A stretch of 64,000 nt of DNA. Origin: an uncultured Acidimicrobiaceae bacterium (GTDB taxonomy: Bacteria; Actinomycetota; Acidimicrobiia; Acidimicrobiales; CAYSAC01). The stretch is taken from NCBI GenBank assembly GCA_964428815.1, contig CAYSAC010000001.1, positions 25,349 to 89,348 of the forward strand, given 5' to 3'. The notes below the pieces were generated by a model. It was not told the DNA's origin, did no database searches, and saw only the letters and a program-made list of their open reading frames with translations. Both the position numbers and the translations under genes were made by a program. Positions 12,782 through 55,948 of this stretch are shown in pieces. Each line of letters opens with the position of its first letter. Position 1 is the first letter of the stretch.

Positions 12782-12843
12782 CGGATCCCCAACTAGTTTG
12801 ATGTCATACTAAAGTGTCTTGAAGCACGGGGCCAGAGGAGGTC
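12782..12843. promoter_or_regulatory. Divergent promoter region between two P450 genes, with an AT-rich core at 12791-12823
   Basis: This is the only AT-rich patch in the neighbourhood (aactagtttgatgtcatactaaagtgtcttgaa). It lies between divergent starts at 12781 (-) and 12844 (+), each with a nearby SD (GGGGA; AGAGGAGG). No precise -35/-10 assignment is possible. Confidence 0.5.
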
Positions 12844-36149: not shown

Positions 36150-36163
36150 CTGACCTCCGTTGA

Positions 36164-37863: not shown

Positions 37864-37906
37864 GTGGCTCGTTCCCCCCGGAGGTCGGCGCCGGAGAACT
37901 ATACTA

Positions 37907-37920
37907 ACCGATCGGTACAA
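37907..37920 (-). promoter_or_regulatory. Box A of the conserved 14-nt motif (TTGTACCGATCGGT on the minus strand)
   Basis: Plus strand reads ACCGATCGGTACAA, and its last base is the A of the BVMO ATG. 43 nt upstream of the SnoaL ATG. Matches the boxes at 48833 and 54038 at 12/14 positions. Confidence 0.5.
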
Positions 37921-39578
37921 TGGCGTTCTCATCTGACCCCGAAACCGTCGATGTTCTGGTCGTCGGCGCAGGCATCACCGGCATCTACCAGTTGTACCGC
38001 GCCCGCGAAGCAGGGTTCTCCGTGAAGCTGCTCGAGGCCGGCGGTGGCGTGGGGGGCACGTGGTACTGGAACCGCTACCCGGGGGCGCGGTTCGATTCGG
38101 AGAGCTACACCTACGCGTACCTGTTCTCGAGAGAGCTGTTCGACGAGTGGGAGTGGCAGGAGCACTTCGCGGAGCAACCAGACACCGAGCGCTACCTCAA
38201 CCATGTCGTCGATCGGTTCGACCTCCGGCGCGACATCCGGTTCGGCGCCAAGGTCGCCTCGGCTTTGTGGGACGAGCAGTCGGGGACGTGGACCGTGGTG
38301 GTCAGCGACGGCACGGAGCTCCGCGCGCGGGTCCTCATCGCCGCGACCGGCGTCTTGTCGGTGCCGTACTTCCCGGACGTGCCGGGACGCGAGGACTTCC
38401 GCGGTGAGTCGTACCACACGGGTCTGTGGCCGGCGACGCCCGTCGAGTTCGCAGAGAAGCGCGTCGCCGTCATCGGTACCGGATCGAGCGGCGTCCAGGT
38501 GATCCCGGCCATCGCCGGCGAGGTCGCCTCCCTGACCGTGTACCAACGGTCGGCCAACTGGTGCACCCCGCTCAACAATCGACCGATCACGCCCGACGAG
38601 CAGGCGTGGCTGCGGGCCGACTTCGACGCGATCTGCGAGACGCTCAACACCTCGCCGGCCGGGTTCCTCCACGTGCCGCACGACCGCGGCACCTTCGACG
38701 ACCCAGCGGAGGAGCGGTCGGCGTTCTTCGAGAAGATGTGGGCCAGCCCCGGCTTCACCAAGCTCACCAGCAACTACACCGACCTGCTGCTCGATCCCGA
38801 CGCGAACGCGGAGTGGTGCGCGTTTCTCGCCGACAAGACGCGGAGCATCGTCGAGGATCGCGAGACCGCCGAGAAGCTGATCCCCAAGGATCACCGCTTC
38901 GGCGAGAAGCGGCCTCCCTTCGTGACCGGCTACTACGAGGTCTTCAACCAGGCCAACGTCGCGCTCGTCGATCTGAAGCAGACGCCGATCCTGCGTGTGA
39001 CCGAGCGCGGGATCGAGACGGCCGAAGGAGTGCGCGAGTTCGACATCGTCGTGTGGGCGACCGGCTTCGACTTCGGCACCGGCGCACTCAACCGCATGGG
39101 GATCCGCGGTCGAGCCGCTCTCGCGCTCGAGGACCACTGGGCGGACGGTCCGACGACGTTCCTCGGCGTCCAGACGACCGGCTTCCCGAACTTCTTCTTC
39201 CCCGGTGGGCCGCACGCTGCAGCCGGCAACAACCCGCGGTACAACGGCGACCAAGTGGACTTCATCACCGAGACGTTCGTCTATGTGCGCGACCACGGCT
39301 ACGACGTCATCGAAGTGGACCCCGCCGCCGAAGACAGGTGGACGACGATGATCGACACCGCGGCGAGGATGCCGCCCTCCTTCGGCGAGAAGAGCTATTA
39401 CTTTGGCACCAACATCCCCGGGAAGCCACGCCGGTACCTGCTGAACGCCGGTGGCCGGCCAAAGCTCCTCAAGGAGATCGCCAGAGTCCGCGCGACCGAC
39501 TACCAGGCGTTCAGACTGTCGCGATCGCCGTCACGGGACAGCCGACCGCACCGGGCAACCGCAACGGGGGTGCAGTGA
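37920..39578 (+). CDS. Baeyer-Villiger (type I flavin-containing) monooxygenase
   Basis: VVGAGITG FAD motif, GGTWYWNRYPGARFD, BVMO fingerprint FRGESYHTGLWP, second Rossmann VIGTGSSG. Confidence 0.9.
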   Translation: MAFSSDPETVDVLVVGAGITGIYQLYRAREAGFSVKLLEAGGGVGGTWYWNRYPGARFDSESYTYAYLFSRELFDEWEWQEHFAEQPDTERYLNHVVDRFDLRRDIRFGAKVASALWDEQSGTWTVVVSDGTELRARVLIAATGVLSVPYFPDVPGREDFRGESYHTGLWPATPVEFAEKRVAVIGTGSSGVQVIPAIAGEVASLTVYQRSANWCTPLNNRPITPDEQAWLRADFDAICETLNTSPAGFLHVPHDRGTFDDPAEERSAFFEKMWASPGFTKLTSNYTDLLLDPDANAEWCAFLADKTRSIVEDRETAEKLIPKDHRFGEKRPPFVTGYYEVFNQANVALVDLKQTPILRVTERGIETAEGVREFDIVVWATGFDFGTGALNRMGIRGRAALALEDHWADGPTTFLGVQTTGFPNFFFPGGPHAAAGNNPRYNGDQVDFITETFVYVRDHGYDVIEVDPAAEDRWTTMIDTAARMPPSFGEKSYYFGTNIPGKPRRYLLNAGGRPKLLKEIARVRATDYQAFRLSRSPSRDSRPHRATATGVQ

Positions 39579-40569
39579 GCAGGAAGCGGCTCCGGTTGTG
39601 CTCGCGCAGCCAGGTTGCGAGCTCGTGCAGGTACCACAGCTCGCCGAGCGGCACGCCGAGCTTGAAGAGGCAGAGGTGATGGATCGGCAGCAACGAGTGC
39701 CGGCTCTCGTCGCGATCTCCGCCGACCATCCCTTCGACCGCGTAGTTGTCCGCGATCAGAGCCGAGATCTGTGACTCGGTGATCCACTCCAGGATGGCCG
39801 GGTCGCGCGCGTCGAGGTACGTGCACATCGTGTGGATCTTCTTTGGATCCGGGTCGCGCCCCCACTCGAGGACCTGCGTGGCGAATCCGGTGTGGAACAA
39901 CACCATGTCGCCGGGCTCCACGACGACGTCGTCCGCGGCCATGACCTCCTCGAGCGTCTTGCGATCGACGCCACGCCACTCGATCCCGAGGTGGTGCGCG
40001 AGGTCGATGAGGACGCCCCGCCCCTGCACTCCGTGGAAGGCCATGTGCTCCAGGCCGAGGTGGTGCGCGAAGGAGACGTGCTCGCTGCCGTCGCCCCGAG
40101 CGTCGGGCTTCGGTCCGACGAGGTCGACCCCGGCGCGATACCCGTTGTAGAAGACGGCCTCCTCGATCCCGTCGCCGTCGGCATCGAACTCGGCACCGGC
40201 GTGAGCAAACGAGTCCCACTGCGTGGAGTACTGCAACCAGAGCGTCACCTTGTCGTCGGCCCACACATCGACGTACTTCGGGTGACCCCACTTCTCCATC
40301 TGGCTCTGGTGGATGTTGAAGAAGGTGTCAGGAGTGCCGTCCATGGCCTCGGTCGGCGTGAGGACTGGCGGGTACCGCCGCTGGTTCAAGGCGGTCCCAC
40401 CGGGATAGTCGAGCGGCAGGCTGAGACAGAAGCTGATGCCGGCCTCGACCTCCCGCACACCTTGGAGGACCTTCTCGGGGGTGAGCAGGTTGATGCGCCC
40501 GAGCTCGTCGTCGTCGCCCCAGTCGCCCCATGTCGACCCGGGCGGGCGTTGCTTCCACCGTTTCGTCAC
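39511..40569 (-). CDS. Cyclase-family (kynurenine-formamidase-like) protein
   Basis: GTG start at 40567-40569, 3 nt after GGAGGAGGA, overlapping the upstream stop (GTGA). LQYSTQWDSFAHAG and GVLIDL resemble cyclase/formamidase motifs. The 3' end overlaps the convergent BVMO by 68 nt. Confidence 0.7.
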   Translation of the reverse strand: MTKRWKQRPPGSTWGDWGDDDELGRINLLTPEKVLQGVREVEAGISFCLSLPLDYPGGTALNQRRYPPVLTPTEAMDGTPDTFFNIHQSQMEKWGHPKYVDVWADDKVTLWLQYSTQWDSFAHAGAEFDADGDGIEEAVFYNGYRAGVDLVGPKPDARGDGSEHVSFAHHLGLEHMAFHGVQGRGVLIDLAHHLGIEWRGVDRKTLEEVMAADDVVVEPGDMVLFHTGFATQVLEWGRDPDPKKIHTMCTYLDARDPAILEWITESQISALIADNYAVEGMVGGDRDESRHSLLPIHHLCLFKLGVPLGELWYLHELATWLREHNRSRFLLTAPPLRLPGAVGCPVTAIATV

Positions 40570-41516
40570 TGGTCCTCCTCCGTTGCGTTCGTTGCAAGAA
40601 GCTCGGGGTAGCACTGCTCGACGAGCATGCGGCACCCTTCGCGCCAGGTGACGTCGCACTGTCCGAGCACCTCGCGTCTGAAGGTGGTGTCGGGCACCAG
40701 CGCGCACCACGTCTTGGACGTGTACTGGAACGACGGCTCCCTGCCGACCAGCTCGCCCAGGTACGTGCAGTAGTCCTCGACGGTGACGACGTCGTCACCG
40801 CACCAGTTGACCACCAAGGGAGGCACGCGGCCCGCTTCCAGCGCGGCGACGCCCAGCCGGGCGCAATCGGGCTCGAAGATCGGTCGCGCGTAGTTGGGCT
40901 TGTCGGGATGCAGCCAGATCGGCTTGCCCTGCACGATGCGGTCGAGCCGGTCCCGCATCGGGCCGCCGTCCACCCCCGACGCGCCGCCCACGCGGATGAT
41001 CGTGGCCGGGATGTCGAGGCTGCGGGAGACGTAGCTGACGACCGCCTCGTTCGCCACCTTGGTGAAGGAGTACGCGCTGGTGGTGTGGATGCCGAACGGA
41101 TGGGACTCGGGCACCGGCGTGTCGCCACCAGGAGGGTCGTACACCGAGATCGTGGAGGCGAAGAGGAAGCCCTTCGCCGGTCGGCAGTGCGCCATCAACC
41201 GCCCGGTCGCGTCGGCATACGGATCGAAGGAGCTCGGCCACCGATCTCTGCCGGAGACGTCGACTCGACCGTCCGCGTTGGGTGTCAGCGGCAGCGCGCT
41301 GTGGAACACGTAGTCGAAGTCGTCGGGTAGATCGTCGAACGAGTCGAACAGGTCGTGCTGGATGCACGTGACGCCCTGCGCCTCCAACGCGGCGCGCGCG
41401 TCGGGTTTCGAGAAGCGAGCCATGGCGAACACGTCGTTGTCCGGCGCCAGCAACCGCAGCGCGGGCGCGCTCACCGGTCCCTGTCCGCCGACGAACAACA
41501 CCTTGTGCCCTTGCAT
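40566..41516 (-). CDS. NAD-dependent epimerase/dehydratase-family protein
   Basis: VLFVGGQGPVS Rossmann motif and SAYSFTK (YxxxK). The 808-aa track ORF was trimmed to the ATG at 41514-41516. Confidence 0.8.
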   Translation of the reverse strand: MQGHKVLFVGGQGPVSAPALRLLAPDNDVFAMARFSKPDARAALEAQGVTCIQHDLFDSFDDLPDDFDYVFHSALPLTPNADGRVDVSGRDRWPSSFDPYADATGRLMAHCRPAKGFLFASTISVYDPPGGDTPVPESHPFGIHTTSAYSFTKVANEAVVSYVSRSLDIPATIIRVGGASGVDGGPMRDRLDRIVQGKPIWLHPDKPNYARPIFEPDCARLGVAALEAGRVPPLVVNWCGDDVVTVEDYCTYLGELVGREPSFQYTSKTWCALVPDTTFRREVLGQCDVTWREGCRMLVEQCYPELLATNATEEDQ

Positions 41517-41530
41517 GCCGGCGTCCGCGC

Positions 41531-42904
41531 TCAGAAGCCGAGGTCGAGGACCGGCTTGTCGAAGGGCGCCACGTTGACCTTCTGGAGCGCCGGCAGCAGT
41601 CGGTCGTAGGACAGGCCGGCGAGGAAGCCGTCGACCGTGCGCTGGAGGTTGGAGATGTGACCCTCGAGCCGTTCGTTCAGCCGCATGTACTCGAAGCCCT
41701 TGGCGTGCAGGCCCTTCTGCTGCCTCGGCAGGTTCGAGAAGTCCTGCGCGGGGATCGGCGGCCAACGCGTGTCGTTGGGCTCCCACACCTCCGGCCGGGT
41801 GGGCGGCGCCGGCTCCTCGCCCGCGGGGAACCGCGCCAGCGACCAGATCTCCATGAGCGTCTCCTCCGGTCCCAACGGCCGGAAGCGGTATGACGACGCG
41901 CTGCTGTACATCGGCAGCACGAAGTAGTGCGGGAAGCACTGGTAGAAGGTGTCGTTGAAGCCGCTGGCGTCGAGCTCGTTGATGTCGGGGATGTCCGCTT
42001 TCCGCTCCTGGTGCCACCGCATGACGGCGTCGTTGAGCGCCCGGTTCCACGTCGAGATCGCCAGCGTCGGGTCGGCGGGCAGCTCCATACCGCGCAACCC
42101 CTCGGCGACGCGCACGTCGTTGGCGTGGACCATCCCGTCCATGCCCTCGCTCATCACCCGCAGGTAGTCGATCTCCGCGTCGATGAACGCACTCCGGTCG
42201 AACGGCGCGCCGGGACGCAACGAGTAGCGCATCCCGGGGATGTCGAGCTGAGGGTGCGTGACCACCACGTGGTACATCTCGACGAACGCCTCGATCGCCA
42301 GCTTCCAGTTCACGGGGAGGCGGGCGGCGTACCAACTCTCGGCCCGCAGCGATTCGACTTTCCACGCGTCGAGGATGGAGGCGGCCGGTTCCATGCACTC
42401 GCGCACGGGCGGGGCGTCGTCGTCGAAGTTGATCCACGCGCACCCGCCCCACACCTCGCAGCGCACCGGAACGAGGTCGACGTCGCCGGGCGCGAGGTTG
42501 TGCTCGGAGAACGACTTCCGGCGCGGGATGGAGGTGTTCTTGCCGTCCAGCCCGTAGCACCAGCCATGGAACGGGCAGGTGAACCCGTTCTCGCACGTCC
42601 CGCGACCTTTCACAAACTGCACGCCACGATGGCGGCAGGCGTTTTGGAACGCCGTCACCCCAAGGTCGTCGGTGCGCACCACGACGACCGACTGATCGAG
42701 GAGCTCGTACTCGGCGAAGTCGCCCGGCTGTGGGATCTCCTCGAGCCGGCACGCCATCTGCCAGACCCGCGACCACATGCGCTCGACCTCGAGCTGGAAG
42801 AAGTCGGGATCGAAGTAGCGCTCTTTGGGAACGCGGTCCGGAAGCTCCGGATCCATCGCATAGGGCACCGTTAGCGCCGACCTCTTCTGGTCCACGATCG
42901 CCAC
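41531..42904 (-). CDS. Rieske (2Fe-2S) non-heme-iron oxygenase, alpha subunit only
   Basis: Rieske motif CRHRGVQF...CPFHGW. Mononuclear-iron region EAFVEMYHVVVTHP. GTG start 6 nt after GGAGG. No beta subunit, ferredoxin or reductase gene adjacent. Confidence 0.9.
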   Translation of the reverse strand: MAIVDQKRSALTVPYAMDPELPDRVPKERYFDPDFFQLEVERMWSRVWQMACRLEEIPQPGDFAEYELLDQSVVVVRTDDLGVTAFQNACRHRGVQFVKGRGTCENGFTCPFHGWCYGLDGKNTSIPRRKSFSEHNLAPGDVDLVPVRCEVWGGCAWINFDDDAPPVRECMEPAASILDAWKVESLRAESWYAARLPVNWKLAIEAFVEMYHVVVTHPQLDIPGMRYSLRPGAPFDRSAFIDAEIDYLRVMSEGMDGMVHANDVRVAEGLRGMELPADPTLAISTWNRALNDAVMRWHQERKADIPDINELDASGFNDTFYQCFPHYFVLPMYSSASSYRFRPLGPEETLMEIWSLARFPAGEEPAPPTRPEVWEPNDTRWPPIPAQDFSNLPRQQKGLHAKGFEYMRLNERLEGHISNLQRTVDGFLAGLSYDRLLPALQKVNVAPFDKPVLDLGF

Positions 42905-43018
42905 GCTGCGCCTCCTTCAGGCTGGAGTGCCTTGATCCTGGAAGGAAGACTAACCTAGCATCGCCACAATGGTTCGCGCCGTGAGAGAACACCGTTTCCG
43001 GATCGGGGAGGTCGCATC

Positions 43019-44263
43019 ATGACTGACAAGGACTTCGTCGTTTCGGGCGACGGGCATCTACTCGAGCCCACGGACCTGTTCAAGACGCGCCTTCCGAAAC
43101 ACCTGCGGGACCGGGCCGTCTGGGAAGAAGACTTCGAGATCGAGCCGCTGGAGAAGGGCGGTGCCCGGATCTTCCGCCAGCTGCACTCCCCTGGGTTCGA
43201 AGGTTGGACGGTCTCCCGCTACCGCCAGACCCGCGGGCGGATGCCGGAGGGTGACCCCGAGATGATCCTCGAGGACATGGACCTCGACGGAGTCGACGCC
43301 CAGGTGCTGCACCCGAACCTGTCGCTCTTCGGGCTCTACTCCGACGACCACGAGCTTTCGATGGCCCATGCCCGGGTGTACACCGACTACGTCATCGAGC
43401 GGTTCTCGCCGTACTTCTCTCGGCTGGCCCCGACCGCTCCCATACCGATCACCGACATCGACGACGCCGTCGTCGAGATCGAGCGGGTCGCGGCCGCCGG
43501 GTTCCGCGCCGCCCTCCTGCCGGCGACGCCGCCGAAGCCGTACTACTCACGGCACTTCGACCCGGTGTGGGCGGCGCTCCAGGCCACTGGCCTGCAGCCG
43601 TTCTTCCACACGCAGACCGGCGGTGTGAAGGTCAACGACCCGGAATCCACGACGCTCAAGGTCGTCATGGAATCGGCCAGACAGGTCAACCAGCCGATGA
43701 CCGAGGCGGCGGCATCGAAGAGGATGATCACCCAGTCCGTCTACGCCGGGCTCGTCCCCGGGAAGCTCATGTGCGAGCTCATCGGTGGCGGAGTGCCTGA
43801 GCGCTACCCGGCCCTCCACTTCTCCCTCATCGAGTTCAACGCCCATTGGTTGGCGTCGGTGGTCGGCGGCATGGACAAGTGCTGGATCACCGGGATCGGC
43901 CAGGACCCCGACTGGTGGATCGGGAACTGGGACCACACCCGCCCCGCCAACGACCAGCCCGACATGGCGCAGCTGTTCCGCCTGAACGAGAAGTGGCCGT
44001 ACCCGCTGACGCCGAGCGAATACGTCCAGCGCCAGTTCCACGTCCAGTTCCAGGACGATCCGGTCGCCGTCGCCTGCCGGCACCTCACCGGGGTGTCGAC
44101 GATCGTGTGGGGCAACGACTACCCGCATGCCGAAGGGACGTTCCGCGGCAGCCGGGAGCTGCTGGCGAAGCAGTTCGCCGATGTTCCCGCGGACGAGCGC
44201 GCCGCCATCGTCGGCGGCACCCTCGGTCGGCTGCTCGGTTTCAAGGCCCCGGTGGCCGCCTGA
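43019..44263 (+). CDS. Amidohydrolase_2-family protein
   Basis: VVSGDGHLLEP N-terminal motif, VWGNDYPHAEGTF C-terminal motif. SD GGGGAGG upstream. Confidence 0.85.
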   Translation: MTDKDFVVSGDGHLLEPTDLFKTRLPKHLRDRAVWEEDFEIEPLEKGGARIFRQLHSPGFEGWTVSRYRQTRGRMPEGDPEMILEDMDLDGVDAQVLHPNLSLFGLYSDDHELSMAHARVYTDYVIERFSPYFSRLAPTAPIPITDIDDAVVEIERVAAAGFRAALLPATPPKPYYSRHFDPVWAALQATGLQPFFHTQTGGVKVNDPESTTLKVVMESARQVNQPMTEAAASKRMITQSVYAGLVPGKLMCELIGGGVPERYPALHFSLIEFNAHWLASVVGGMDKCWITGIGQDPDWWIGNWDHTRPANDQPDMAQLFRLNEKWPYPLTPSEYVQRQFHVQFQDDPVAVACRHLTGVSTIVWGNDYPHAEGTFRGSRELLAKQFADVPADERAAIVGGTLGRLLGFKAPVAA

Positions 44264-45168
44264 GCGAGCAGCTCCGCTTCGACGGGCGCGTCGCGGTCGT
44301 CACCGGCTCGGGCCGCGGCATCGGACGCGCCTACGCGCACCTGCTCGCGGAGCGGGGCGCCAGCGTCGTGGTCAACGACCTCGGCGGCTCGATGGCAGGC
44401 GACGGCGCCGACGCCCGGCCGGCATCCACCGTCGTCGATGAGATCGTCGCAGCCGGTGGCGCCGCGCTGGCGGACACCGGCGACGTGGCCACCGACGCCG
44501 GCGCCCAGGCGCTCATCGACGCGGCCGTCGAGCGGTTCGGACGCCTGGACATCCTGATCAACAACGCCGGGATCATGCGGTGGGCGGGCTTCCCCGAGGC
44601 CGACGCGGATGACCTCGCTCGTCACCTCGCCGTGCACGTGACCGGCTCTTTCAACACCACCCGCGCCGCGTGGCCGCACATGGTCGAGCAGGGCTACGGC
44701 CGCGTCGTGATGACGACGTCATCGGGGATCTTCGGGCTGCCCAAGAACCTCTCGTACGCGACTGCGAAGGGCGGCGTCGTGGGGATGGCCCGCAGCCTCG
44801 CGACCGCCGGCGTCGCTCACGGCATCAAGGTCAACCTCATCGCACCGGCAGCAACCACGCGCATGGCAGGCAGCGCCGCCCCGGCGGAGATGACGCCAGA
44901 GCTCGTCGCTCCGATGGTCGCGTTCCTCGCCCACGAGAGCAGCCCAGTCAGCGGCGAGATCTACGCCGCCGGCGCTGGACGGTTCGCGCGCATCTTCATC
45001 GCATCGACGCCGGGCTATCTCCACGCGACTCCAGATGCGACGATCGAGGACGTGGCACAGAACTGGGCGGCGATCAACGACGAGACCGGGTACGACATCC
45101 CGACCGACCTCATGGCCTGGTCCGCTGCGTTCATCGCCCACCTGCGCGTGGGAGCCGGTGAGCAATGA
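44260..45168 (+). CDS. SDR (MFE-2/Hsd4-type N-terminal dehydrogenase-like); start codon non-canonical or unresolved
   Basis: LRFDGRVAVVTGSGRGIGRAYA...NNAG...YATAKGG. There is no in-frame ATG/GTG/TTG between the Rossmann motif and far upstream. The only candidate is CTG at 44260-44262, overlapping the upstream TGA (CTGA). Confidence 0.7.
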   Translation: MSEQLRFDGRVAVVTGSGRGIGRAYAHLLAERGASVVVNDLGGSMAGDGADARPASTVVDEIVAAGGAALADTGDVATDAGAQALIDAAVERFGRLDILINNAGIMRWAGFPEADADDLARHLAVHVTGSFNTTRAAWPHMVEQGYGRVVMTTSSGIFGLPKNLSYATAKGGVVGMARSLATAGVAHGIKVNLIAPAATTRMAGSAAPAEMTPELVAPMVAFLAHESSPVSGEIYAAGAGRFARIFIASTPGYLHATPDATIEDVAQNWAAINDETGYDIPTDLMAWSAAFIAHLRVGAGEQ

Positions 45169-45944
45169 GCAGTCCGATCGAGATCCCCGAATCCTTCCCC
45201 GGCCCCGGCGCGGTCGCGGGCAAGCGCGTGGTGATCGCCGGCGCCGGTCGGGGCCTCGGTGCCCTGCTCGCCCATGCGTTCTCGCACGCCGGCGCATCCG
45301 TCGCGCTCGTCGCGCGCACCGAGAGCGACCTGAAGGCCGTGGCCGAGGCCCTCCCCGGACCGTCCATGGTGCTCAGTGGCGACGTGACCGACGAGGACTT
45401 CAACGAAGGGGTGGCCGACGCCACCGTGACCGAATGGGGCGGCGTCGACGTGTGGATCTGCAACGCGGGGATCTCGCCGATCGTGGCCGGCCCGCGCGAG
45501 ACCGACGCCTCGGTCTGGCGGCAGGTGTTGGAGGTGAACCTCACCGGCGCGTTCCTCGGGGCTCGCGCCGCGGCCCGAGTGATGCGCGAGGGAGGACGGC
45601 TGATCTTCACGGGCTCGGTGCTCGGAGAGCGACCGCGCAAGGGGCTGACCGCGTACAGCGCCTCGAAGGCCGGGTTGGTCGGCATGGCGAAGGGCCTCGC
45701 CCTGGATCTGGCCGCCGCCGGCATCACGGTGAACGTCGTCGCTCCCGGGTGGTTCGATTCGCCGCTGGCGGACGGGTGGAAGAACAACCCCGAGACCTCG
45801 GACGCGATCACCGGCCACACCGCGCAGCAGCGCTGGGGAGCACCGACCGACCTGGCGGGCGCGTACACGTTCTTGGCCTCCGACGCGTCCGCGTTCATCA
45901 CCGGCACCGTGCTCAGCGTCGACGGCGGATACCTGCTCGTATGA
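45165..45944 (+). CDS. SDR
   Basis: ATGA overlap. VVIAGAGRGLG, CNAG, YSASKAG. Confidence 0.9.
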   Translation: MSSPIEIPESFPGPGAVAGKRVVIAGAGRGLGALLAHAFSHAGASVALVARTESDLKAVAEALPGPSMVLSGDVTDEDFNEGVADATVTEWGGVDVWICNAGISPIVAGPRETDASVWRQVLEVNLTGAFLGARAAARVMREGGRLIFTGSVLGERPRKGLTAYSASKAGLVGMAKGLALDLAAAGITVNVVAPGWFDSPLADGWKNNPETSDAITGHTAQQRWGAPTDLAGAYTFLASDASAFITGTVLSVDGGYLLV

Positions 45945-46687
45945 CGGCGCCGCGACGGGTCGTCGTCATCACCGGAGCGGGAGGCGCGCTCGGCGCGGCG
46001 CTCTCGCATCAGCTCGCGAGCGAGCCCACCACCGATCTCGTGCTGAGCGATGTCAGCGCACCGTCGCTCGAGGCGACCGTCGCCGGCCTCCCTGCCGCTG
46101 GCGGGTCGGTCGAGACGCTGCTCGCTGACGTGAGCGACTTCGCCCAGGTCTCCTCCGTCGTCGCGTTGGCGGTCGAGCGGTTCGGCCGCCTCGACGTGCT
46201 GATCAGCAACGCCGGCGTGCTCTCGCCGAACGGCCGGATCCACAACCTCTCGACGGAGGACTGGGAGCGCGCGTTCCGTATCAACGTTCTCGGCGCCGTC
46301 AACGGCATCCGTGCCGCGGTGGCCGTCATGCGCCCGCAAGGGTCGGGCTCGATCGTGCTGACGGCGTCGGTGTCCGGCCTGACCGCGTGGTCGCATGCGG
46401 CGCCGTACTGCGCGACGAAGGCCGCAGTGATCCAGCTCGCGAAGGTCGCTGCGGTGGAGTACGCCCGCGATGGGATCCGCGTCAACTGCGTGTGCCCCGG
46501 GACGTTCCGGTCCGCGATCCATGCCGATCTCCCGCCAGAGGCGCTGGAGCCCATCGCCGCGCGCCATCCGCTCGGGCTCGGATCGGCTGCCGACCTCGTG
46601 GGTGCGTACTCCTACCTCGCGAGCGACGCATCGCGCTGGACGACCGGGTCGGCGATCGTCGTCGACGGGGGCTACTCAGCTCCCTGA
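45941..46687 (+). CDS. SDR
   Basis: ATGA overlap. VVVITGAGGALG, SNAG, YCATKAA. Confidence 0.9.
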   Translation: MTAPRRVVVITGAGGALGAALSHQLASEPTTDLVLSDVSAPSLEATVAGLPAAGGSVETLLADVSDFAQVSSVVALAVERFGRLDVLISNAGVLSPNGRIHNLSTEDWERAFRINVLGAVNGIRAAVAVMRPQGSGSIVLTASVSGLTAWSHAAPYCATKAAVIQLAKVAAVEYARDGIRVNCVCPGTFRSAIHADLPPEALEPIAARHPLGLGSAADLVGAYSYLASDASRWTTGSAIVVDGGYSAP

Positions 46688-47277
46688 GCGATCCCCCGCA
46701 TGAAGATGTCGGCGAACGGCTTCGCCACATCGCGCGCCGTCAGCGGTCCGCCCGTCTTCAGCCACAGGTACGTGTAGTTGTGCATGCCGAGCCACGCCAG
46801 GGCGGTCAGCCTCGGATCGATCTCACGGAACTCGCCCGAGTCGACGCCGGCCTGAAAGACCGCCTCGACCCGCCGCTCGTACTCGCGGCGCCGCTGCCGG
46901 AACTGCTCGGCGCGCTCGCCGGTGAGCGCCGGGAACTCGTGCAGGAAGACCCAGACGTGATCCGGGTAGCGGTGGATCACGTCGAGCAGCTCATCACCGA
47001 GCATGGCCAGCTGCTGCGACGGTGAGCCGCCCGCTTCGGCGACGCGATCAGCGCCGAGCATCACCTCGTCCATCACTCGGTCGTGGATCGCGGCGAGCAG
47101 CTCCTCCTTGGAGCGGATGTAGTGGTAGAGCGCGCCCTTGCCGAGCTCGTTCGCGGCACAGAGCGCCATGATCCCCGTGGCGTGGTACCCCTGCCGGGCG
47201 AAGACGCTCGCGGACGTGTCGATGATCGCTTCGCGACGTGCCTGCCAGTTCGGCCTGCGTCGAGAATCGTCGGTCAT
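46672..47277 (-). CDS. TetR-family transcriptional regulator
   Basis: N-terminal HTH AIIDTSASVFARQGYHATGIMALCAANELGKGALYHYIRSKEEL. ATGA overlap with the acyl-CoA synthetase stop. 16-nt convergent overlap with the SDR at 45941..46687. Confidence 0.9.
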   Translation of the reverse strand: MTDDSRRRPNWQARREAIIDTSASVFARQGYHATGIMALCAANELGKGALYHYIRSKEELLAAIHDRVMDEVMLGADRVAEAGGSPSQQLAMLGDELLDVIHRYPDHVWVFLHEFPALTGERAEQFRQRRREYERRVEAVFQAGVDSGEFREIDPRLTALAWLGMHNYTYLWLKTGGPLTARDVAKPFADIFMRGIAQGAE

Positions 47278-48815
47278 GCGTGGTCCCTGAGCTCGCGCTT
47301 CAGGACCTTGCCTGACGGGTTCCGCGGCAGCGCGTCGATGAACACGATCTCCTTCGGCACCTTGAATCGCGCCAGCTGGCCACGGCAGTGCTCGATGAGC
47401 TCGTCAGCGGTCGCGGTCGCCTCAGGCCGCAACGCGACGAAGGCGACGGGAACCTCACCCCATCGATCGTCGCGACGTCCGACCACGGCGGCCTCGAGCA
47501 CCTCGCCGTGCTCGTAGAGGACGCGCTCGACCTCCGAGCCCGCGATGTTCTCCCCGCCCGACAGGATCATGTCCTTCAGCCGATCGACGATGTAGAGGTA
47601 GCCGTCGTCGTCCCGCACACCGATGTCGCCCGTGTGAAACCAGCCGCCGGTGAACGCCTTGGCGGTCGCGTCGGGGTCACGCCAGTACCCCTTGAACACC
47701 TTCGGGCCGCGCAGCACGATCTCGCCGCGCTCCCCCGCCGGCACCGACGCGCCGTCCTCGTCCCAGATGTCGACCTCCAGGTAGAGGCACGGCCGGCCGA
47801 CGCTGCCGAGCTTGGTCACGGTGCTGCCCTTGTCGAGGAAGGTGTCACCGGACACCGTCTCCGTCAGCCCGTAGGCGTCAGCGAACCATGCCGACGGGAA
47901 GGTCCGCTGCAGCCGCTCGATGAGCGGGATCGGCATCTTCTCCCCGCCGCCGATCACCAGGCGCACGGACGACAGGTCGCGCTGGTCGATGTCGGGCAAC
48001 GACATGATCCCGTTCACCATTGCGGGCGCCAGCCACACCGTTGTCACGCGCGACTGCTCGAGCTCGTCCACCACGGCGGCCGCGTCGAACGCGCGGTGGA
48101 GGATCGTCGTGCCGCCTGCCGCGATGAGCGTGGTGGTCGTCAGGTCGAGCGCGCCGACGTGGTACAGCGGCCCGCACGCGAGGCCGAGGTCGGCGCCCGT
48201 GATCCCGAACTCGACGATGTGCGCCAGGTTCTTCCAGACCAGGTTGGCGTGGGTGATCATCACGCCCTTCGGGCGTCCGGTGGTGCCCGACGTGTACATC
48301 AGCCGATGGAGGTCGTCGCCGGCGGCCGGCGCTGGCGGCGAGATGTCCGTTGCCTCGCGAAGCTGTGCGAGCGGGGTCCATCCGCTGGGTGCCGCCGCCG
48401 CGATGCAGGCGCGCTCCAGCGTTGCCTCGATGCCCTTCGTCGCGTCGTTGGCGAGCTCGACGAGCGACTCGTCGGAGACGAGCGCGCGCGCCCCTGAGTG
48501 CTCGAGGATGTAGCGGACCTCGGGTGCGGCGAGCCGCCAGTTGATCGGCATCGCAATCGCGCCGAGGTGGTTGGCCGCGAAGATCGTCTCCAGGAACTCC
48601 GAGCAGTTGTAGGAGAGCAGGCCCACGACGTCGCCGGCGCCGACGCCCGCTGCCTGCAGTCCGGCCGCCAGCGCGGCGGATCGAGCGGCCATCTCCGCAT
48701 AGGTCACGACGTCGTCACCGAAGATGCACAGCGGCTTGGTCGGCGTGCGGCTCGCGTGATGGGCGAGGACACTGCACCAGCTCATGTCGGCCTGCATCGG
48801 CTGCACCTGCGCCAC
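47274..48815 (-). CDS. Acyl-CoA synthetase / AMP-dependent ligase
   Basis: YTSGTTGRPKGV, GYGLTE-like (DAYGLTET), TGDIG, PRNPSGKVLK. GTG start at 48813-48815, 8 nt after GGAGG. ATGs at 48797 and 48785 are alternatives. Confidence 0.85.
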   Translation of the reverse strand: MAQVQPMQADMSWCSVLAHHASRTPTKPLCIFGDDVVTYAEMAARSAALAAGLQAAGVGAGDVVGLLSYNCSEFLETIFAANHLGAIAMPINWRLAAPEVRYILEHSGARALVSDESLVELANDATKGIEATLERACIAAAAPSGWTPLAQLREATDISPPAPAAGDDLHRLMYTSGTTGRPKGVMITHANLVWKNLAHIVEFGITGADLGLACGPLYHVGALDLTTTTLIAAGGTTILHRAFDAAAVVDELEQSRVTTVWLAPAMVNGIMSLPDIDQRDLSSVRLVIGGGEKMPIPLIERLQRTFPSAWFADAYGLTETVSGDTFLDKGSTVTKLGSVGRPCLYLEVDIWDEDGASVPAGERGEIVLRGPKVFKGYWRDPDATAKAFTGGWFHTGDIGVRDDDGYLYIVDRLKDMILSGGENIAGSEVERVLYEHGEVLEAAVVGRRDDRWGEVPVAFVALRPEATATADELIEHCRGQLARFKVPKEIVFIDALPRNPSGKVLKRELRDHA

Positions 48816-48832
48816 GAAGGCAACCTCCAGTG

Positions 48833-48846
48833 TTGTACCGGTCAGT
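48833..48846 (+). promoter_or_regulatory. Box C of the conserved 14-nt motif (TTGTACCGGTCAGT)
   Basis: Lies in the 45-nt divergent gap: 14 nt before the E1 GTG (48861) and 17 nt from the acyl-CoA synthetase GTG (48815). Followed by TACACT. Confidence 0.5.
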
Positions 48847-48860
48847 ACACTACAGACCTC

Positions 48861-50840
48861 GTGGCTGGTGCTCCCTCGTTCTCCAACGCCGATCTCCTCG
48901 AGATGCATCGCCGGATGCTCGTGATCCGCGGGTTCGAGGAGCGAGTGTCCGCGCTCTACCGCGACGGTGAGGTACCCGGCTTCGTGCACCTGTCGATCGG
49001 GCAGGAGGCGTCGGCCGTCGGCGCGTGCTGGCCACTCGCCCCGACGGACGTGATCACGTCCACCCATCGCGGCCATGGCCACTGCCTCGCGAAGGGTCTG
49101 GACCCGCTCGGGATGTTCGCCGAGCTGATGGCCAAGGACGCTGGCACGAACCGCGGGCGCGGGGGCTCGATGCACATCGCCGATCCGACGATCGGGATCT
49201 TCGGCGCCAACGGGATCGTCGCTGCCGGCCTGCCGATCGCGGCGGGTGCGGCGACAGCGGCGCAGCTGCGACGCGACGGCAGCGTCGCGGTGGCGTTCTT
49301 CGGCGACGGTGCGGTTGCCCACGGCACCTTCCACGAAGCGGTCAACCTCGCTGCCGTCTGGCGGCTGCCGGTGATCTTCTTCTGCGAGAACAACGGCTAC
49401 GCCGAGTTCTCGCCCGCATCGGCCCAGCACGCGGCGCCACTCGAGCTGCGCGCCGCCGGCTACGGCGTCGACTACGTCGCGGTGGACGGCAACGACGTCG
49501 AGGCGACCGCAGTCGCCATGCAGTCGGCCATCGAGGCGACCCGCGCCGGACGGGGTCCCGTCGTCATCGAGGCAGCCACCTACCGCTGGCACGGTCACTA
49601 CGAAGGCGACCCGCAGCGCTACCGATCGCCCGACGAGGTGCGGGAGTGGGAAGCACGCGACCCGCTGCTCGTCAATGCCCGCCGGCTGCGATTGGCGGGC
49701 ATCACGGACGACGCGCTCGAATCCATGGAGTCATCAGTCGCGCACGAGCTCGACGAGGCCGTCGAGACAGCTCGGCGGTTGACGGCTCCGGCGGCCGCCA
49801 CGCTGACCGACTTCGTCGCCCGCCCGAGACCCGAACCCGCCGAGCCGCCGGCACCGGCCGCCGACGCTCCAGTGTTCCGCACCATGGACGCGATCCGCGC
49901 CGCGCTCGAAGCTGAGCTCGCCGGCGACGAGCGCGTGTTCATCGCGGGAATCGACGTCGCGGCCGGAGGCAATGTGTTCGGCCTGATGCGCGGCCTGCAC
50001 GACCGCTTCGGCGATCGCGTCCGCGACACCCCCATCTCCGAGAGCGCGATCATCGGCCTCGGCGTCGGCGCGGCGATGGCGGGCATGCGCCCGGTGGTCG
50101 AGCTGATGTACCTCGACTTCGTCGGCGTCTGCCTCGACCAGCTGCTCAACCAAGCAGCGAAGCTGCCGTTCATGACCGGCGGCGCGGCGCAGATGGCGCT
50201 GACCGTGCGCACGCAGTTCGGCGCCGGCCGCTCGTCGGGAAGCCAGCACTCGCAGAGCCTCGAGGCGCTGCTCGCGCACATCCCCGGGCTCACCGTGGTC
50301 ATGCCGTCGACCCCGGCCGACACCTACGGCTTGCTGCGCGCCGCGATCCAGGACCCGAACCCGGTCGTCTTCATCGAGAACCGGCTGCTCTACGGCATGA
50401 AGGGGCCGCAGCCGCCTGACGACCACATCGTCCCGATCGGAACGTCCGCCGTCGTGCGTCCGGGAGCCGATGTCACGGTCGTGTCGGTCTCACGGATGGT
50501 GCACGAGGCGGTCGCCGCCGCCGAGCGCCTGGCCGGCGAAGGCGTCTCGGTCGAGGTCATCGACCTGCGCACCGTCGCCCCGCTCGACATGGCCCCGATC
50601 CTCGACTCGGTGCACAAGACCGGCCGGCTGCTCATCGCCCACGAAGCCGTCATCCCCTTCGGCATCGGCGCCGAGATCGCTGCCACCGTCGCCCGTGAGG
50701 CGTTCTGGGACCTCGACGCGCCGATCCAGCGCGTCGGCGCGGCGGCGACTCCCCCGCCGTACGCGCCCGATCTCGAACGTGCGTGGCTACCCGATCGCGA
50801 CGACATCGCCGCGGCGATCCGGCACCTCGCTGCGGTCTAG
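48861..50840 (+). CDS. Fused ThDP-dependent 2-oxoacid/acetoin dehydrogenase E1 component (alpha and beta in one chain)
   Basis: Alpha part: GFVHLSIGQEA, GGSMH, FFGDGA..G.FHE, ENNGYA. A Pro/Ala linker RPRPEPAEPPAPAADAP follows. Beta part: DTPISESAIIGLGVGAAMAGMRPVVE...VVMPSTPADTYGLL. GTG start at 48861 is inferred. Confidence 0.85.
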   Translation: MAGAPSFSNADLLEMHRRMLVIRGFEERVSALYRDGEVPGFVHLSIGQEASAVGACWPLAPTDVITSTHRGHGHCLAKGLDPLGMFAELMAKDAGTNRGRGGSMHIADPTIGIFGANGIVAAGLPIAAGAATAAQLRRDGSVAVAFFGDGAVAHGTFHEAVNLAAVWRLPVIFFCENNGYAEFSPASAQHAAPLELRAAGYGVDYVAVDGNDVEATAVAMQSAIEATRAGRGPVVIEAATYRWHGHYEGDPQRYRSPDEVREWEARDPLLVNARRLRLAGITDDALESMESSVAHELDEAVETARRLTAPAAATLTDFVARPRPEPAEPPAPAADAPVFRTMDAIRAALEAELAGDERVFIAGIDVAAGGNVFGLMRGLHDRFGDRVRDTPISESAIIGLGVGAAMAGMRPVVELMYLDFVGVCLDQLLNQAAKLPFMTGGAAQMALTVRTQFGAGRSSGSQHSQSLEALLAHIPGLTVVMPSTPADTYGLLRAAIQDPNPVVFIENRLLYGMKGPQPPDDHIVPIGTSAVVRPGADVTVVSVSRMVHEAVAAAERLAGEGVSVEVIDLRTVAPLDMAPILDSVHKTGRLLIAHEAVIPFGIGAEIAATVAREAFWDLDAPIQRVGAAATPPPYAPDLERAWLPDRDDIAAAIRHLAAV

Positions 50841-52864
50841 ATCACCGGTTCGATCTCGATCGGAACGCCGGAGTACAGCGCCATGCCGCCGAGACGATCG
50901 ACATCATCAGTACTGGTGAGGTGATTGACGTTCGCGTGCAGGTGTCCGTGCGGGATCGAGCAAACGCCCTTGCGCATACCGGCATCGACCTTCGCCGCAA
51001 CGATGATCTCGCCTCTCTTGTTGTGGACGCGCACTCTCTGCCCGTCGGCGATCCCGTGAGCCGCCGCTGTGTCGGGATGCAGGAAGATGTCCGCCGGCTC
51101 GCCCATGAAGCTGAGCTGCGCGTTCATTTTCTTGACCTGGCGCCTCGAGCTGAGGACCAGCGGCTTCGGCTTGCCGAGTGCGGCCTCATCGGCGTCGCGC
51201 ATCTCGTACCACTGCTCGAGCATCTCCGGCGGTGCCAATCGCCATCCGCCGATCCGCTCGAAGTGCTCCTCCGCCCACGGGGCCGGGAACTCGTGCGGGA
51301 ACTCGACGTACTGCTTCGCCTTGAGATCTTCGAAGCTGGAGCGCGCACGCTTCATCAGCGTCGCGAGCATGAAGTCGTCGGCGCCCTCCTGGCGATCATC
51401 GTCCGGTACGTAGTCGGGAACTCGCAATCCCGCCCGCCTCATGAATTGCGAGATCACCCACCAGGCCGAGCGCCTCTCGCCCAACGGTTCGACGAGCGGC
51501 GGGGTGTACTGCAACGACACGTTCCAGTTGAGCGTGTCCCAGCGCGTGAGCTCGGCCCGCTCGAGTGGACCCTTGGTCGGCAGGAGATGCGTGCACAACG
51601 GCGTCAGCTCGTTGTGCACGATCTCGACACCCACGTGCAGGTCGAGCTTCGGCAGCGCGGCCTTGAGCGCATTGGTGTCGGGGAACGCGCGCAGCATGCT
51701 GCCGCCGAAGTTGAACAGGGCGCGGATGTTGCCGCGCTCGATCTCCAGCGGAAGCACTGCGCACGGCCAGTCGCCGACGATCCCCTTGACGTCAGGGCGG
51801 ACGTTCGACCCGGGGGTGAAGGTGTCGAGCACCGGCAGCTCCCAGTCCTCGTACGGCTTGAGGAAGCCGGGGTGGAACCAGGCGCCGCCCTTCTCGTTCA
51901 TCGAGCCGGTCAGGACCATGATCAGCCAGGCGAACCACTGCGTCAGGTTGGCGCCGGCGGACATGGTGATGCCCGTGCCGGTCTCCGTGGCCACGCGGCC
52001 CTTCCGGCGAATGGCCCCGAGCAGGTCCTCGAGTTCCTGTTCGGTGACACCGGCGATCTCCGCGGCCTTCGCCCGGTCATAGCCTTCGAGCGCCGCCCGC
52101 AGCTCCGGCAGGCCAGTGACCGGCTGCTTGGGGTTGCACGGGCCGCCGTCGATGAGCTCGCGCACCACCCAGGCGAGGATCGCGTAGTCCTTGCCGGGGT
52201 AGGCGGCGATGTGGCGGGTGGAGAGCCTCGCCGTCTGCGTGAGCACCGGGTCGATCGTCCACACCTCACCGCGCTCGGCGACGGACCTGATCCAGGTGAC
52301 CGGGTCGAACATCCCCGTGTTGTGCGCGTGGCTGACCACCGGGTTCGTTCCGATGTAGATCAGCAGCTCGACGTTGTCGTAGTCCGTCTTGGGGTTGAGG
52401 GGGAACCCCATCATCGCGGCCGCGAGCATCGTCTTGGCGGTGCCATCGATGGTCAGCGGCGAGAACTTCGGCGGCGTACCCAAGGCGCGGTAGAACGCGT
52501 CTTCCATGGCGTAGCCGGATGAGTCCAAGCCGAGGCCACTGCCGTAGTTGATGGCGACCGCGTTCGGGCCATGCGCATCGATGGTGCTTCGAAGCTTCGC
52601 GGCGATGTCGTCGAGCGCCTCGTCCCATCCCACCTCGACGAGCTCGCCGTGCTTGCGCATCATCGGGCGCGTGATCGCGCCCTCGATGTGGTGCACCTGA
52701 CCAGTCGCTCGGCCCTTCGGGCAGGTGTAGCCCGCGGTGAGCGGATGCTCCTTGTCACCGCGCACCTTCAGGATCCGGTCACCGGCGACCTCGGCGACGA
52801 TTCCACAGGCGGTGATGCACACCCGGCAGTAGGTGCGCTTGATCTCGACAGGTTGACTGGTCAC
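50837..52864 (-). CDS. Molybdopterin (bis-MGD type) oxidoreductase with N-terminal 4Fe-4S motif
   Basis: GTG start at 52862-52864, 4 nt after GGAGAA. CRVCITACG...CPKG cluster motif. Long molybdopterin oxidoreductase-like body and a C-terminal barrel-like region (VRVHNKRGEI...). Confidence 0.85.
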   Translation of the reverse strand: MTSQPVEIKRTYCRVCITACGIVAEVAGDRILKVRGDKEHPLTAGYTCPKGRATGQVHHIEGAITRPMMRKHGELVEVGWDEALDDIAAKLRSTIDAHGPNAVAINYGSGLGLDSSGYAMEDAFYRALGTPPKFSPLTIDGTAKTMLAAAMMGFPLNPKTDYDNVELLIYIGTNPVVSHAHNTGMFDPVTWIRSVAERGEVWTIDPVLTQTARLSTRHIAAYPGKDYAILAWVVRELIDGGPCNPKQPVTGLPELRAALEGYDRAKAAEIAGVTEQELEDLLGAIRRKGRVATETGTGITMSAGANLTQWFAWLIMVLTGSMNEKGGAWFHPGFLKPYEDWELPVLDTFTPGSNVRPDVKGIVGDWPCAVLPLEIERGNIRALFNFGGSMLRAFPDTNALKAALPKLDLHVGVEIVHNELTPLCTHLLPTKGPLERAELTRWDTLNWNVSLQYTPPLVEPLGERRSAWWVISQFMRRAGLRVPDYVPDDDRQEGADDFMLATLMKRARSSFEDLKAKQYVEFPHEFPAPWAEEHFERIGGWRLAPPEMLEQWYEMRDADEAALGKPKPLVLSSRRQVKKMNAQLSFMGEPADIFLHPDTAAAHGIADGQRVRVHNKRGEIIVAAKVDAGMRKGVCSIPHGHLHANVNHLTSTDDVDRLGGMALYSGVPIEIEPVI

Positions 52865-52875
52865 GTTTTCTCCGT

Positions 52876-54021
52876 TCAGCAGCCGAGGGCGCGTGCGATC
52901 ACCAGGTGCTGGATCTCGTTCGTGCCCTCGCCGATCTCGAGCACCTTCGCATCGCAGTAGAAGCGGGCCACGGGTGACTCGAGCATGTAGCCGACGCCGC
53001 CGTGGATCTGGACGGCCTCCGATGCCGCCGACACCGCGAGGCGACTGGCCTTCAGCTTGGCCATCGACGCCTCCTTGAGGAAGGGCTGCCCGGTGTCGCG
53101 CAGGTACGCGGCGCGGTAGGTGAGCCATCGTGCCGCCTCGAGCTCGGTGGCGATGTCGGCGAGCTTGAACTGCACCGCCTGGAACTTCGAGATCGGCTGG
53201 CCGAACTGCACGCGCTGCCGCGCGTAGTCGAGAGCCAGGTCGAGCACGGCCTGGGTGAGGCTGAGCGACAAGGCCGCGATCGAGATGCGCCCGACCTCGA
53301 GCGTCCCGAGGAACTGGCTGAGCCCCATCTCCGGATCGCCGACGAGGTGATCGTCGGGCACCCAGACGTCGTCGAAGAACAGCTCACGCGTGTCAAGGCC
53401 CCGCCAGCCGATGCCGCGCATCTTCGGGCCCATGGTGAAGCCGGCGGTGTCCTTCTCCACCACGAAGCTCGCGAACCTCGCCTGCCCCTCGACCGACTGG
53501 GTCCGCGCCAGCAGCGTTACCCCGAAGGACATGTCGGTGCCCGCGTTGGAGATGAACGCCTTGCGGCCGTTGATCAGCCAGCCACCATCGTGCCGTTCTG
53601 CCCTGGTGCTGATCCCTCGTGCGTCGGACCCGGCATCGGGTTCAGTCAGGCCGAACGCGCCGAGGGAGCGTCCCTCGGCCAACGGTCGCAGCCAGCGCTC
53701 GCGCTGCGCGTCGTTGCCGAAGAGGTACAGCGGCAGCGAACCGATCGTCACGTGCGCCTGCCACGCGGCGGCCACCGACTGGTCCGCCAGGCCGAGCTGC
53801 TCCATCGCCGCGACGAACCCGACCGTCGACATGCCGATCCCGCCCCACTCCTCCGGGATCAGCATTCCCAGCAGGCCCAACGCACCCATCTCGCGGAGCA
53901 GGTCGGTCGGGCACCGCGCCTCCTCCCACGCCAGCGGGGCACGCACGGCGATCTCCTTCTGCGCGAACTCGCGACAGAGGCCCACCAGATCGCGCTCCGA
54001 CTCGGTGAGCGAGAAGTCCAC
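52876..54021 (-). CDS. Acyl-CoA dehydrogenase
   Basis: LTEPDAGSD, ISNAG, and a C-terminal IGEGTNEIQ containing the catalytic Glu position. GTG start. Confidence 0.9.
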   Translation of the reverse strand: MDFSLTESERDLVGLCREFAQKEIAVRAPLAWEEARCPTDLLREMGALGLLGMLIPEEWGGIGMSTVGFVAAMEQLGLADQSVAAAWQAHVTIGSLPLYLFGNDAQRERWLRPLAEGRSLGAFGLTEPDAGSDARGISTRAERHDGGWLINGRKAFISNAGTDMSFGVTLLARTQSVEGQARFASFVVEKDTAGFTMGPKMRGIGWRGLDTRELFFDDVWVPDDHLVGDPEMGLSQFLGTLEVGRISIAALSLSLTQAVLDLALDYARQRVQFGQPISKFQAVQFKLADIATELEAARWLTYRAAYLRDTGQPFLKEASMAKLKASRLAVSAASEAVQIHGGVGYMLESPVARFYCDAKVLEIGEGTNEIQHLVIARALGC

Positions 54022-54037
54022 GGCCGGATCCTATTGG

Positions 54038-54051
54038 ACCGACCGGTACAA
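54038..54051 (-). promoter_or_regulatory. Box B of the conserved 14-nt motif (TTGTACCGGTCGGT on the minus strand)
   Basis: Plus strand reads ACCGACCGGTACAA. Lies in the 40-nt gap between the SDR stop (54062) and the ACAD GTG (54021), 16 nt upstream of that GTG. Confidence 0.5.
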
Positions 54052-55927: not shown

Positions 55928-55948
55928 GTTGCCACGTCAGCAGATCGG

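Follow-up and report, generated by a model that had tools for sequence, protein, structure and literature searches.

TetR-family regulators such as KstR2 and FadR sense CoA thioesters and control catabolic genes. Two other members of this family with defined operators are AibR of Myxococcus xanthus (PDB 5K7F, 5K7H and 5K7Z) and PfmR (TTHB023) of Thermus thermophilus (PDB 3VPR). AibR, the regulator of a biosynthetic operon, has a CoA thioester as its ligand and requires isovaleryl-CoA for DNA binding; its operator is ACCTACCG-NN-CGGTAGGT, and the crystal structure of the complex shows contacts of Lys47 with G12 and G13 and of Tyr51 with T14 (PMC5389471). PfmR recognizes TACCGACCGNTNGGTN and, from in vitro selection, CTGACCGATCGGTCAG; its natural sites conform to (C/T)TTACCGACCGGTTGG, i.e. 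CTTACCGACCGGTTGG and TTTACCGACCGGTTGG, and overlap the core promoters of fatty-acid and phenylacetate genes, some of them being shared in bidirectional promoters (PMC7022988). Here we describe a related operator type in a contig of an uncultured Acidimicrobiaceae bacterium (GCA_964428815.1, CAYSAC010000001.1, positions 25,349 to 89,348; the whole stretch of 64,000 nucleotides is called the window below). Three copies of a palindromic box, termed A, B and C, lie at gene starts around a TetR gene and are almost certainly sites of the neighbouring TetR protein, through which it would control a degradation cluster rich in oxygenases and dependent on CoA; this is a well-supported case of an ordinary kind of bacterial gene switch and calls for no new mechanism. 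More specifically, we read the boxes as operators of a TetR-family repressor encoded at 46672..47277, which belongs to an AibR/PfmR-like group with a TetR_C_24 ligand domain; judging from sequence comparison, we give this reading a probability of roughly 0.78.

The word TTGTACCGRTCRGT matches the window at exactly three places, 37907-37920 (minus strand, box A), 48833-48846 (plus strand, box C) and 54038-54051 (minus strand, box B), and none of 100 dinucleotide-preserving shuffles of the window yielded a match. A preliminary description of this DNA had reported the three copies and judged them to be more than chance, with 12 of 14 columns invariant, a perfect 10-bp palindrome in box A (ACCGATCGGT) and a location in the scarce non-coding gaps. 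All of this was borne out, and all three boxes fall into the roughly 6% of the 33-58 kb region that genes leave uncovered (p ~2.5e-4). The distances to the starts were also given correctly. Box C lies 14 nt from the GTG of a fused alpha/beta E1 gene (48861) and 17 nt from the GTG of an acyl-CoA synthetase (ACS) gene (48815), box B lies 16 nt upstream of the GTG of an acyl-CoA dehydrogenase (ACAD) gene (54021), and box A lies 43 nt upstream of the ATG of a SnoaL gene (37863) and abuts the ATG of a Baeyer-Villiger-type flavin monooxygenase (BVMO) gene (37920). Instead of the three operons that had been proposed, the boxes adjoin five transcription units: SnoaL-P450-ABM-luciferase-like monooxygenase and BVMO at box A, ACS-TetR and fused E1 at box C, and ACAD-molybdopterin oxidoreductase at box B, with the identities of the neighbouring genes confirmed by Pfam. 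The unit of recognition was likewise extended, as the 14-mer is real but makes up only the stronger portion of a palindrome of 16-18 bp, TTGTACCG-NN-CGGTACAA. Compared with the palindrome TGTACCGnnCGGTACA, boxes B and C have one mismatch each and box A has three; all three have a 2-bp centre and so represent the short form. In box C an A replaces one critical G (CAGT), and this substitution is kept in orthologues.

The boxes were also recovered with a weight matrix that had been built from related genomes only, leaving the window out. The scores were 28.7 for box B, 27.7 for box C and 14.6 for box A, and nothing else in the window was found; the maxima in random windows had a mean of 9.6 and reached at most 22.1. 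Sites with two or three mismatches at 6689, 11203, 12884, 27676 and elsewhere are in coding sequence, score no better than random and were dismissed as chance occurrences. One of these, TGTACCGGCCGGT at 27676-27688 on the minus strand, has an exact left half and core within the open reading frame (ORF) 27384..28628, with a poor second half and a matrix score of 5.6, and was treated as chance as well.

For the comparative analysis, a species-representative genome collection was searched with TetR 46672..47277, which gave relatives at 438 places, and 80 related loci (L001-L080) were compared. These loci encode regulators that are 79-90% identical and come nearly all from soil metagenome-assembled genomes (MAGs) of Acidimicrobiales/Acidimicrobiaceae. 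Genes for ACS, TetR, two short-chain dehydrogenases/reductases (SDRs), E1, ACAD, an amidohydrolase, a cyclase and BVMO recur in them in several arrangements, and the full box consensus is TTGTACCGATCGGTACAA. A box precedes E1 in each of the 75 loci with a mappable E1 N-terminus (58 in the short form, 16 with a centre longer by 4 bp and one as a two-mismatch variant), and the 59 distinct short-form sequences show 1.83 bits per column inside the footprint versus 0.45 and 0.64 in the flanks. Upstream of ACAD, the box was detected in 27 of 69 mapped loci and is conserved as TTGTACCGnnCGGTCCAA-TA(g/a/t)(g/c/t)AT-N6-7-start; loci where ACAD directly follows an upstream gene have no ACAD box. A counterpart of box A stands next to BVMO in about seven loci, with TA(t/g)ACTAACCGrTCGGTACAA as the orthologous box in L034, L039, L047, L055, L070 and L076. 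Moreover, the amidohydrolase promoter of 57 related loci carries an invariant TGTACCGACCGGTTGG-TCTAnaaT, located 80-100 nt upstream of the gene (for example in L001 near 17650).

The preliminary description had named two observations that would speak against a shared operator, namely an equally frequent motif in coding regions and its absence from the orthologous intergenic regions of relatives. Neither was made. Sites within two mismatches of the palindrome number 97 in 1.49 Mb, where simulation predicts about 2.2 near-matches per Mb by chance (about 3 in 1.49 Mb); 95 of the 97 are found ahead of a mapped start at a distance of at most 120 nt, and mapped coding sequence contains none. The E1 box in 75 of 75 loci answers the question of conservation.

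The regulator encoded at 46672..47277 has the domains PF00440 (E 9.7e-12) and PF17932, TetR_C_24 (E 5.5e-32). Its best matches among solved structures are 3dcf, an uncharacterised TetR-family chain, AibR (5k7f, E 1.1e-23, residues 1-189) and PfmR/TTHB023 (3vpr, E 4.2e-23, residues 14-200). KstR2 (E 1e-13) and FadR from Bacillus and Thermus (E 5e-6) are weaker homologues and use other operators. AibR is the best characterised relative in sequence, although identity over the aligned region is low. Over residues 1-70 the two proteins align without gaps, so that K47 and Y51 coincide with Lys47 and Tyr51 of AibR, and the recognition helix reads GKGALYHYI as compared with TKAGLYHHI in AibR and SKAALYHHF in PfmR. 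This helix is invariant in 80 of 80 orthologues. On the DNA side, the core TACCG-NN-CGGTA is common to the box, the AibR operator and the PfmR sites. The AibR operator matches the box in its 2-bp centre and throughout the central 12 bp (TACCGNNCGGTA) and differs in its outer bases, which are ACC/GGT there versus TTG/CAA in the window boxes. PfmR comes from another phylum, has other target genes and prefers GACCG/TACCG without the conserved TTGTA/TACAA arms; the TGTACCGACCGGTTGG sequence of the amidohydrolase promoters is nevertheless almost identical to the natural PfmR sites of Thermus. A more remote parallel is QacR of Staphylococcus aureus, whose IR1 (TTATAGACCGATCGATCGGTCTATAA) has ACCG...CGGT half-sites at 6-bp spacing and is bound by two dimers. 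The spacing of IR1 is that of the long E1 variant described below (TGTACCGACCGACCGGTATA); QacR is, however, a multidrug-binding protein with an unrelated ligand domain, was not among the significant sequence matches, and the window sites are of the short form.

Regulators of this type and operators of this type also co-occur in distant lineages, including Rhodococcus, Streptomyces and Thermus. Plasmid-borne homologues of TetR 46672..47277 are found in Rhodococcus pyridinivorans (41% identity), Rhodococcus sp. WAY2 (36%) and Streptomyces sp. NBC_00080 (41%). The two Rhodococcus loci (L082 and L083) have an SDR-ACAD-thiolase-TetR operon with TGTACCGATCGATCCA and TGTATCGATCAGTACA-tttcgagat-ATG ahead of it. 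In the Streptomyces locus (L081), TTGACCGATCGGTACA stands before the cyclase gene of a cluster with cyclase, fused E1, TetR, ACAD and ACS. No relative of the second TetR of the window (55313..55927) is encoded near these boxes. The same scan recovered the known autoregulatory site of PfmR in Thermus (L084). In sequence similarity, contact residues, operator core and co-occurrence, the system thus agrees with the AibR/PfmR type. A literature search for the exact box gave no description in Actinomycetota, and only the work on AibR and PfmR matched. The shared operator and the candidate regulator, both put forward in the preliminary description, are hence supported by conservation, by homology to AibR and PfmR, by the operator core and by the predicted contact residues.

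As an observation in its own right, the Streptomyces locus is part of a linear plasmid (NZ_CP108236.1, 475266-483829) and encodes in addition an NTF2/SnoaL-like protein, an alcohol dehydrogenase (ADH) and an enoyl-CoA hydratase. Since this cluster is syntenic, the pathway is not confined to Acidimicrobiales.

The palindromes are flush with or lie over TANNNT hexamers, 14-16 nt before the E1 and ACAD starts, as expected for a dyad operator at a core promoter, the promoters being defined by consensus only. A scan for E. coli-type -35/-10 promoters found no pairs, which is expected for an actinobacterial genome with 69% G+C; the -10 assignments therefore rest on the actinobacterial TANNNT rule and on conservation. 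Of the -10-like hexamers proposed earlier, TAGTAT at box A and TACACT at box C were retained, and CCAATA at box B gave way to the conserved TAGGAT. At box C, TACACT (48847-48852) is followed by the E1 GTG 8 nt on, a position from which the E1 transcript would be leaderless or nearly so, and E1 orthologues keep TACAnT with the start codon about 9 nt later. On the opposite strand, ACS would have a 5' untranslated region (5'UTR) of about 26 nt carrying GGAGG. The spacing of TAGGAT implies that the ACAD transcript, too, would appear leaderless; ACAD orthologues have TA(g/a/t)(g/c/t)AT, in which the middle bases vary, and the start codon comes 6-7 nt on. The form of TATACTA and TACACTA suggests symmetric bidirectional -10 elements common to the divergent genes. 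As the TetR ATG overlaps the ACS stop codon (ATGA) in the window, TetR would be translationally coupled to ACS and co-transcribed with it from the box C promoter.

The sequences show the sites, their palindromic form, conservation and place at promoters, as well as the homology and the conserved contact residues of the regulator. From these we infer binding, the -10 and transcription start site (TSS) assignments, which ligand is sensed and in which direction it acts, and propose the following model. A dimer of the 46672..47277 protein would read TTGTACCG-NN-CGGTACAA through its recognition helix, with Lys47 contacting both G of CGG and Tyr51 the T after them, as in AibR. Each bound dimer would cover the -10/+1 region at its palindrome. 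At boxes A and C, one repressor beside the symmetric TAnnnTA could silence both divergent units, while box B would control ACAD and the molybdopterin oxidoreductase alone. The TetR_C_24 domain, the CoA-thioester ligands of the relatives and the linkage to ACS indicate that the ligand is probably a CoA thioester, which the co-transcribed ACS would make. On binding this thioester, the repressor would most plausibly leave its operators, which would allow expression of the oxygenases, E1, ACAD, ACS and the repressor's own gene; release upon ligand binding is the likelier direction, since the cluster looks catabolic.

Several results weigh against this reading. The palindrome of box A is weak, its matrix score (14.6) falls within the range of the random maxima, and its support comes from orthologous conservation in only about seven loci. 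In 16 loci the centre of the E1 operator is 4 bp longer, which one dimer could not span likewise. In most relatives the TetR gene has its own conserved, box-free promoter, GCTAACCTCGCnnnCAATG, about 25 nt upstream of its start (L001-L080, about 9975-10000), with the -10 located 7-8 nt before the ATG and an apparently leaderless transcript. Autoregulation through box C, which had been expected from the preliminary description, would thus apply to the gene arrangement in the window and not to most relatives, and is not a general property. This last point also fits the idea that another protein, either the second TetR or an unlinked one, binds the boxes and that TetR 46672..47277 regulates something else, and the second TetR gene, which shares the strand of box B, is 1.3 kb away from it. 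We regard this as very unlikely, however, as the second TetR has Val where AibR, PfmR and TetR 46672..47277 have the thymine-contacting Tyr, the solved structures nearest to it are those of proteins unrelated to AibR and PfmR, a relative of it could be mapped beside the cluster in only 7 of 80 loci, and the Rhodococcus and Streptomyces boxes have only regulators of the 46672..47277 type nearby. Among the window ORFs scanned with Pfam, the only other regulator is a MarR protein at 23552..24073. Still less credible, to the point of being almost negligible, is that the conserved sequence is itself a promoter element, for instance the recognition sequence of an alternative sigma factor. The box is always at promoters and partly overlaps -10 hexamers, but it is dyad-symmetric and used in both orientations, its position relative to the -10 varies (flush at boxes A and C, 4 nt off at box B, downstream of the -10 for ACS and BVMO), and it matches experimentally defined TetR operators.

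The same regulator and the same sites could also work with the opposite logic, in which the repressor binds only when loaded with acyl-CoA and the CoA product of the cluster shuts it off by feedback instead of inducing it. This is an unlikely alternative to release by the ligand, but a more serious one than those above. The cluster appears catabolic, with BVMO, P450s, a Rieske oxygenase, ACS and ACAD, and substrate induction is the usual logic for such clusters. However, the two characterised regulators closest to TetR 46672..47277 include AibR, which shares operator core and contact residues with it and binds its operator only with isovaleryl-CoA (PMC5389471), a behaviour that also counts against the proposed release. 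Because AibR needs its ligand to bind, the direction of the response is not deducible from homology. PfmR, by contrast, is reported to have nanomolar affinity for its sites and to repress transcription in vitro, and added ligand is not mentioned (PMC7022988).

Other readings of the box were discarded. An RNA structure would require a 7-bp stem with a 2-nt loop, which is not feasible, and the E1 and ACAD boxes lie upstream of the inferred transcripts. A mobile or repeat element does not fit either, since conservation is confined to 16-20 bp and does not extend into the flanks. The motif patterns of KstR (TnnAACnnGTTnnA) and KstR2 (AnCAAGnnCTTGnT) have no match in the window, and the boxes differ from both; to this extent the preliminary description was right, although a known operator class, that of AibR and PfmR, does match. 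The BkaR (Rv2506) motif, GTTAnTnnnnAnTAAC with the core GTTA(N)T(N4)A(N)TAAC (PMC3920632), does not resemble the box, and the BkaR regulon was rejected as well.

The E1 operators with the longer centre deserve separate consideration. Fourteen loci carry TTGTACCGACCGACCGGTATAC at the E1 promoter, with a tandem (CGAC)2, and two (L015 and L021, about 11430) carry TTGTACCGACCAACCAGTACA, with a tandem (ACCA)2; in both cases the centre is enlarged by 4 bp. The short operator can accordingly be written as TGTACCGACCAGTACA and the long form as TGTACCGACCGACCGGTATA. The recognition helix of the regulator is unchanged in the long-form loci, and the ACAD box is degenerate in the group with the CGAC duplication. 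In the TTHA0987 promoter controlled by PfmR, two 16-mers are offset by 4 bp and each is bound at nanomolar affinity (PMC7022988), and the long E1 operator has the same layout. We tentatively suggest, with more doubt than confidence, that one unchanged helix serves two layouts at an orthologous promoter, a short one for one dimer and one lengthened by 4 bp for two overlapping dimers, and that the long forms arose by 4-bp tandem duplications, possibly independently. If true, this lineage would show how a TetR operator switches its binding stoichiometry by a single small duplication, and would do so next to a symmetric -10 that works in both directions and serves a leaderless gene in one of them.

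Table 1. Coordinates of the boxes, promoter elements and genes in the window, and of the loci with the tandem (CGAC)2 operator.
Feature	Position	Strand	Remarks
Box A operator	37903..37920	strand-neutral	ACTAACCGATCGGTACAA (+ strand); strong half 37907-37920, other half degenerate; matrix score 14.6
Box C operator	48833..48850	strand-neutral	TTGTACCGGTCAGTACAC; common to the divergent ACS-TetR operon and E1; matrix score 27.7
Box B operator	54034..54051	strand-neutral	TTGGACCGACCGGTACAA (+ strand); matrix score 28.7
Heptamer TATACTA	37900..37906	both strands	putative TANNNT -10, read as TATACT toward BVMO and TAGTAT toward the SnoaL operon
Heptamer TACACTA	48847..48853	both strands	TACACT, putative E1 -10; TAGTGT (-), putative ACS -10
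-10 hexamer TAGGAT, ACAD promoter	54028..54033	-	putative; 6 nt before GTG; conserved in orthologues
TetR-family regulator (TetR_N and TetR_C_24)	46672..47277	-	proposed binder; K47 and Y51 in the recognition helix GKGALYHYI
ACS	47274..48815	-	GTG start at 48815, preceded by GGAGG; proposed ligand maker
Fused alpha/beta E1 (thiamine pyrophosphate-dependent dehydrogenase)	48861..50840	+	most consistent operator-bearing target
ACAD	52876..54021	-	first gene of the box B unit
Molybdopterin oxidoreductase	50837..53128 (ORF)	-	downstream of ACAD; domains from ORF residue 97; true start probably near 52880
BVMO	37920..39578	+	ATG abuts box A
Operon across box A	34954..37863	-	SnoaL 37438-37863; P450 ORF 36164-37675; ABM ORF 35805-36350; luciferase-like monooxygenase 34954-35808; P450 and ABM coordinates are ORF bounds
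Second TetR	55313..55927	-	1.3 kb from box B, same strand
(CGAC)2 loci	about 12150-12200		L002, L007-L009, L027, L030, L032, L040, L046, L053, L054, L056, L063, L074

Overall, the comparison yields a predicted regulon for a widespread, uncharacterised catabolic cluster with fused E1, ACAD, ACS, BVMO, cyclase and amidohydrolase genes in Acidimicrobiales, a host group of abundant and rarely cultured soil bacteria. It would also extend the operator code of AibR and PfmR, TACCG-NN-CGGTA read by Lys and Tyr, from Myxococcus and Thermus to Actinomycetota, and this extended code is of help in predicting which genes many TetR regulators without annotation control.

Some further observations concern the surroundings of the boxes. 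Unlike in the relatives, there is no box in the amidohydrolase promoter of the window (42905-43018), which has lost TGTACCGACCGGTTGG and retains only a -10-like CTAACCT (42950-42956). In the presumed 5'UTR of the amidohydrolase genes of relatives we noticed a second conserved element, GGTACCGCGTrcgcgc or GTTCGCGC (42964-42971 in the window), which may represent a site for a further protein or an element acting at the RNA level. Only 21 bp (55928-55948) separate the second TetR gene on the minus strand from a divergent P450 gene (55949..57298), and this gap has no box. The window as a whole is rich in oxidative catabolic genes, among them four P450s, a KstD-like flavoprotein (14872..16548), amidohydrolases, nitroreductases, SDRs and a CoA-transferase (11564-16548 and elsewhere). 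Furthermore, five loci (L028, L029, L055, L059 and L060) have an Acidimicrobiales-type cluster with a regulator of 80-88% identity on contigs labelled as Burkholderiales, Dormiibacterota, Bifidobacteriaceae or Bifidobacterium breve MAGs; these labels probably stem from binning errors.

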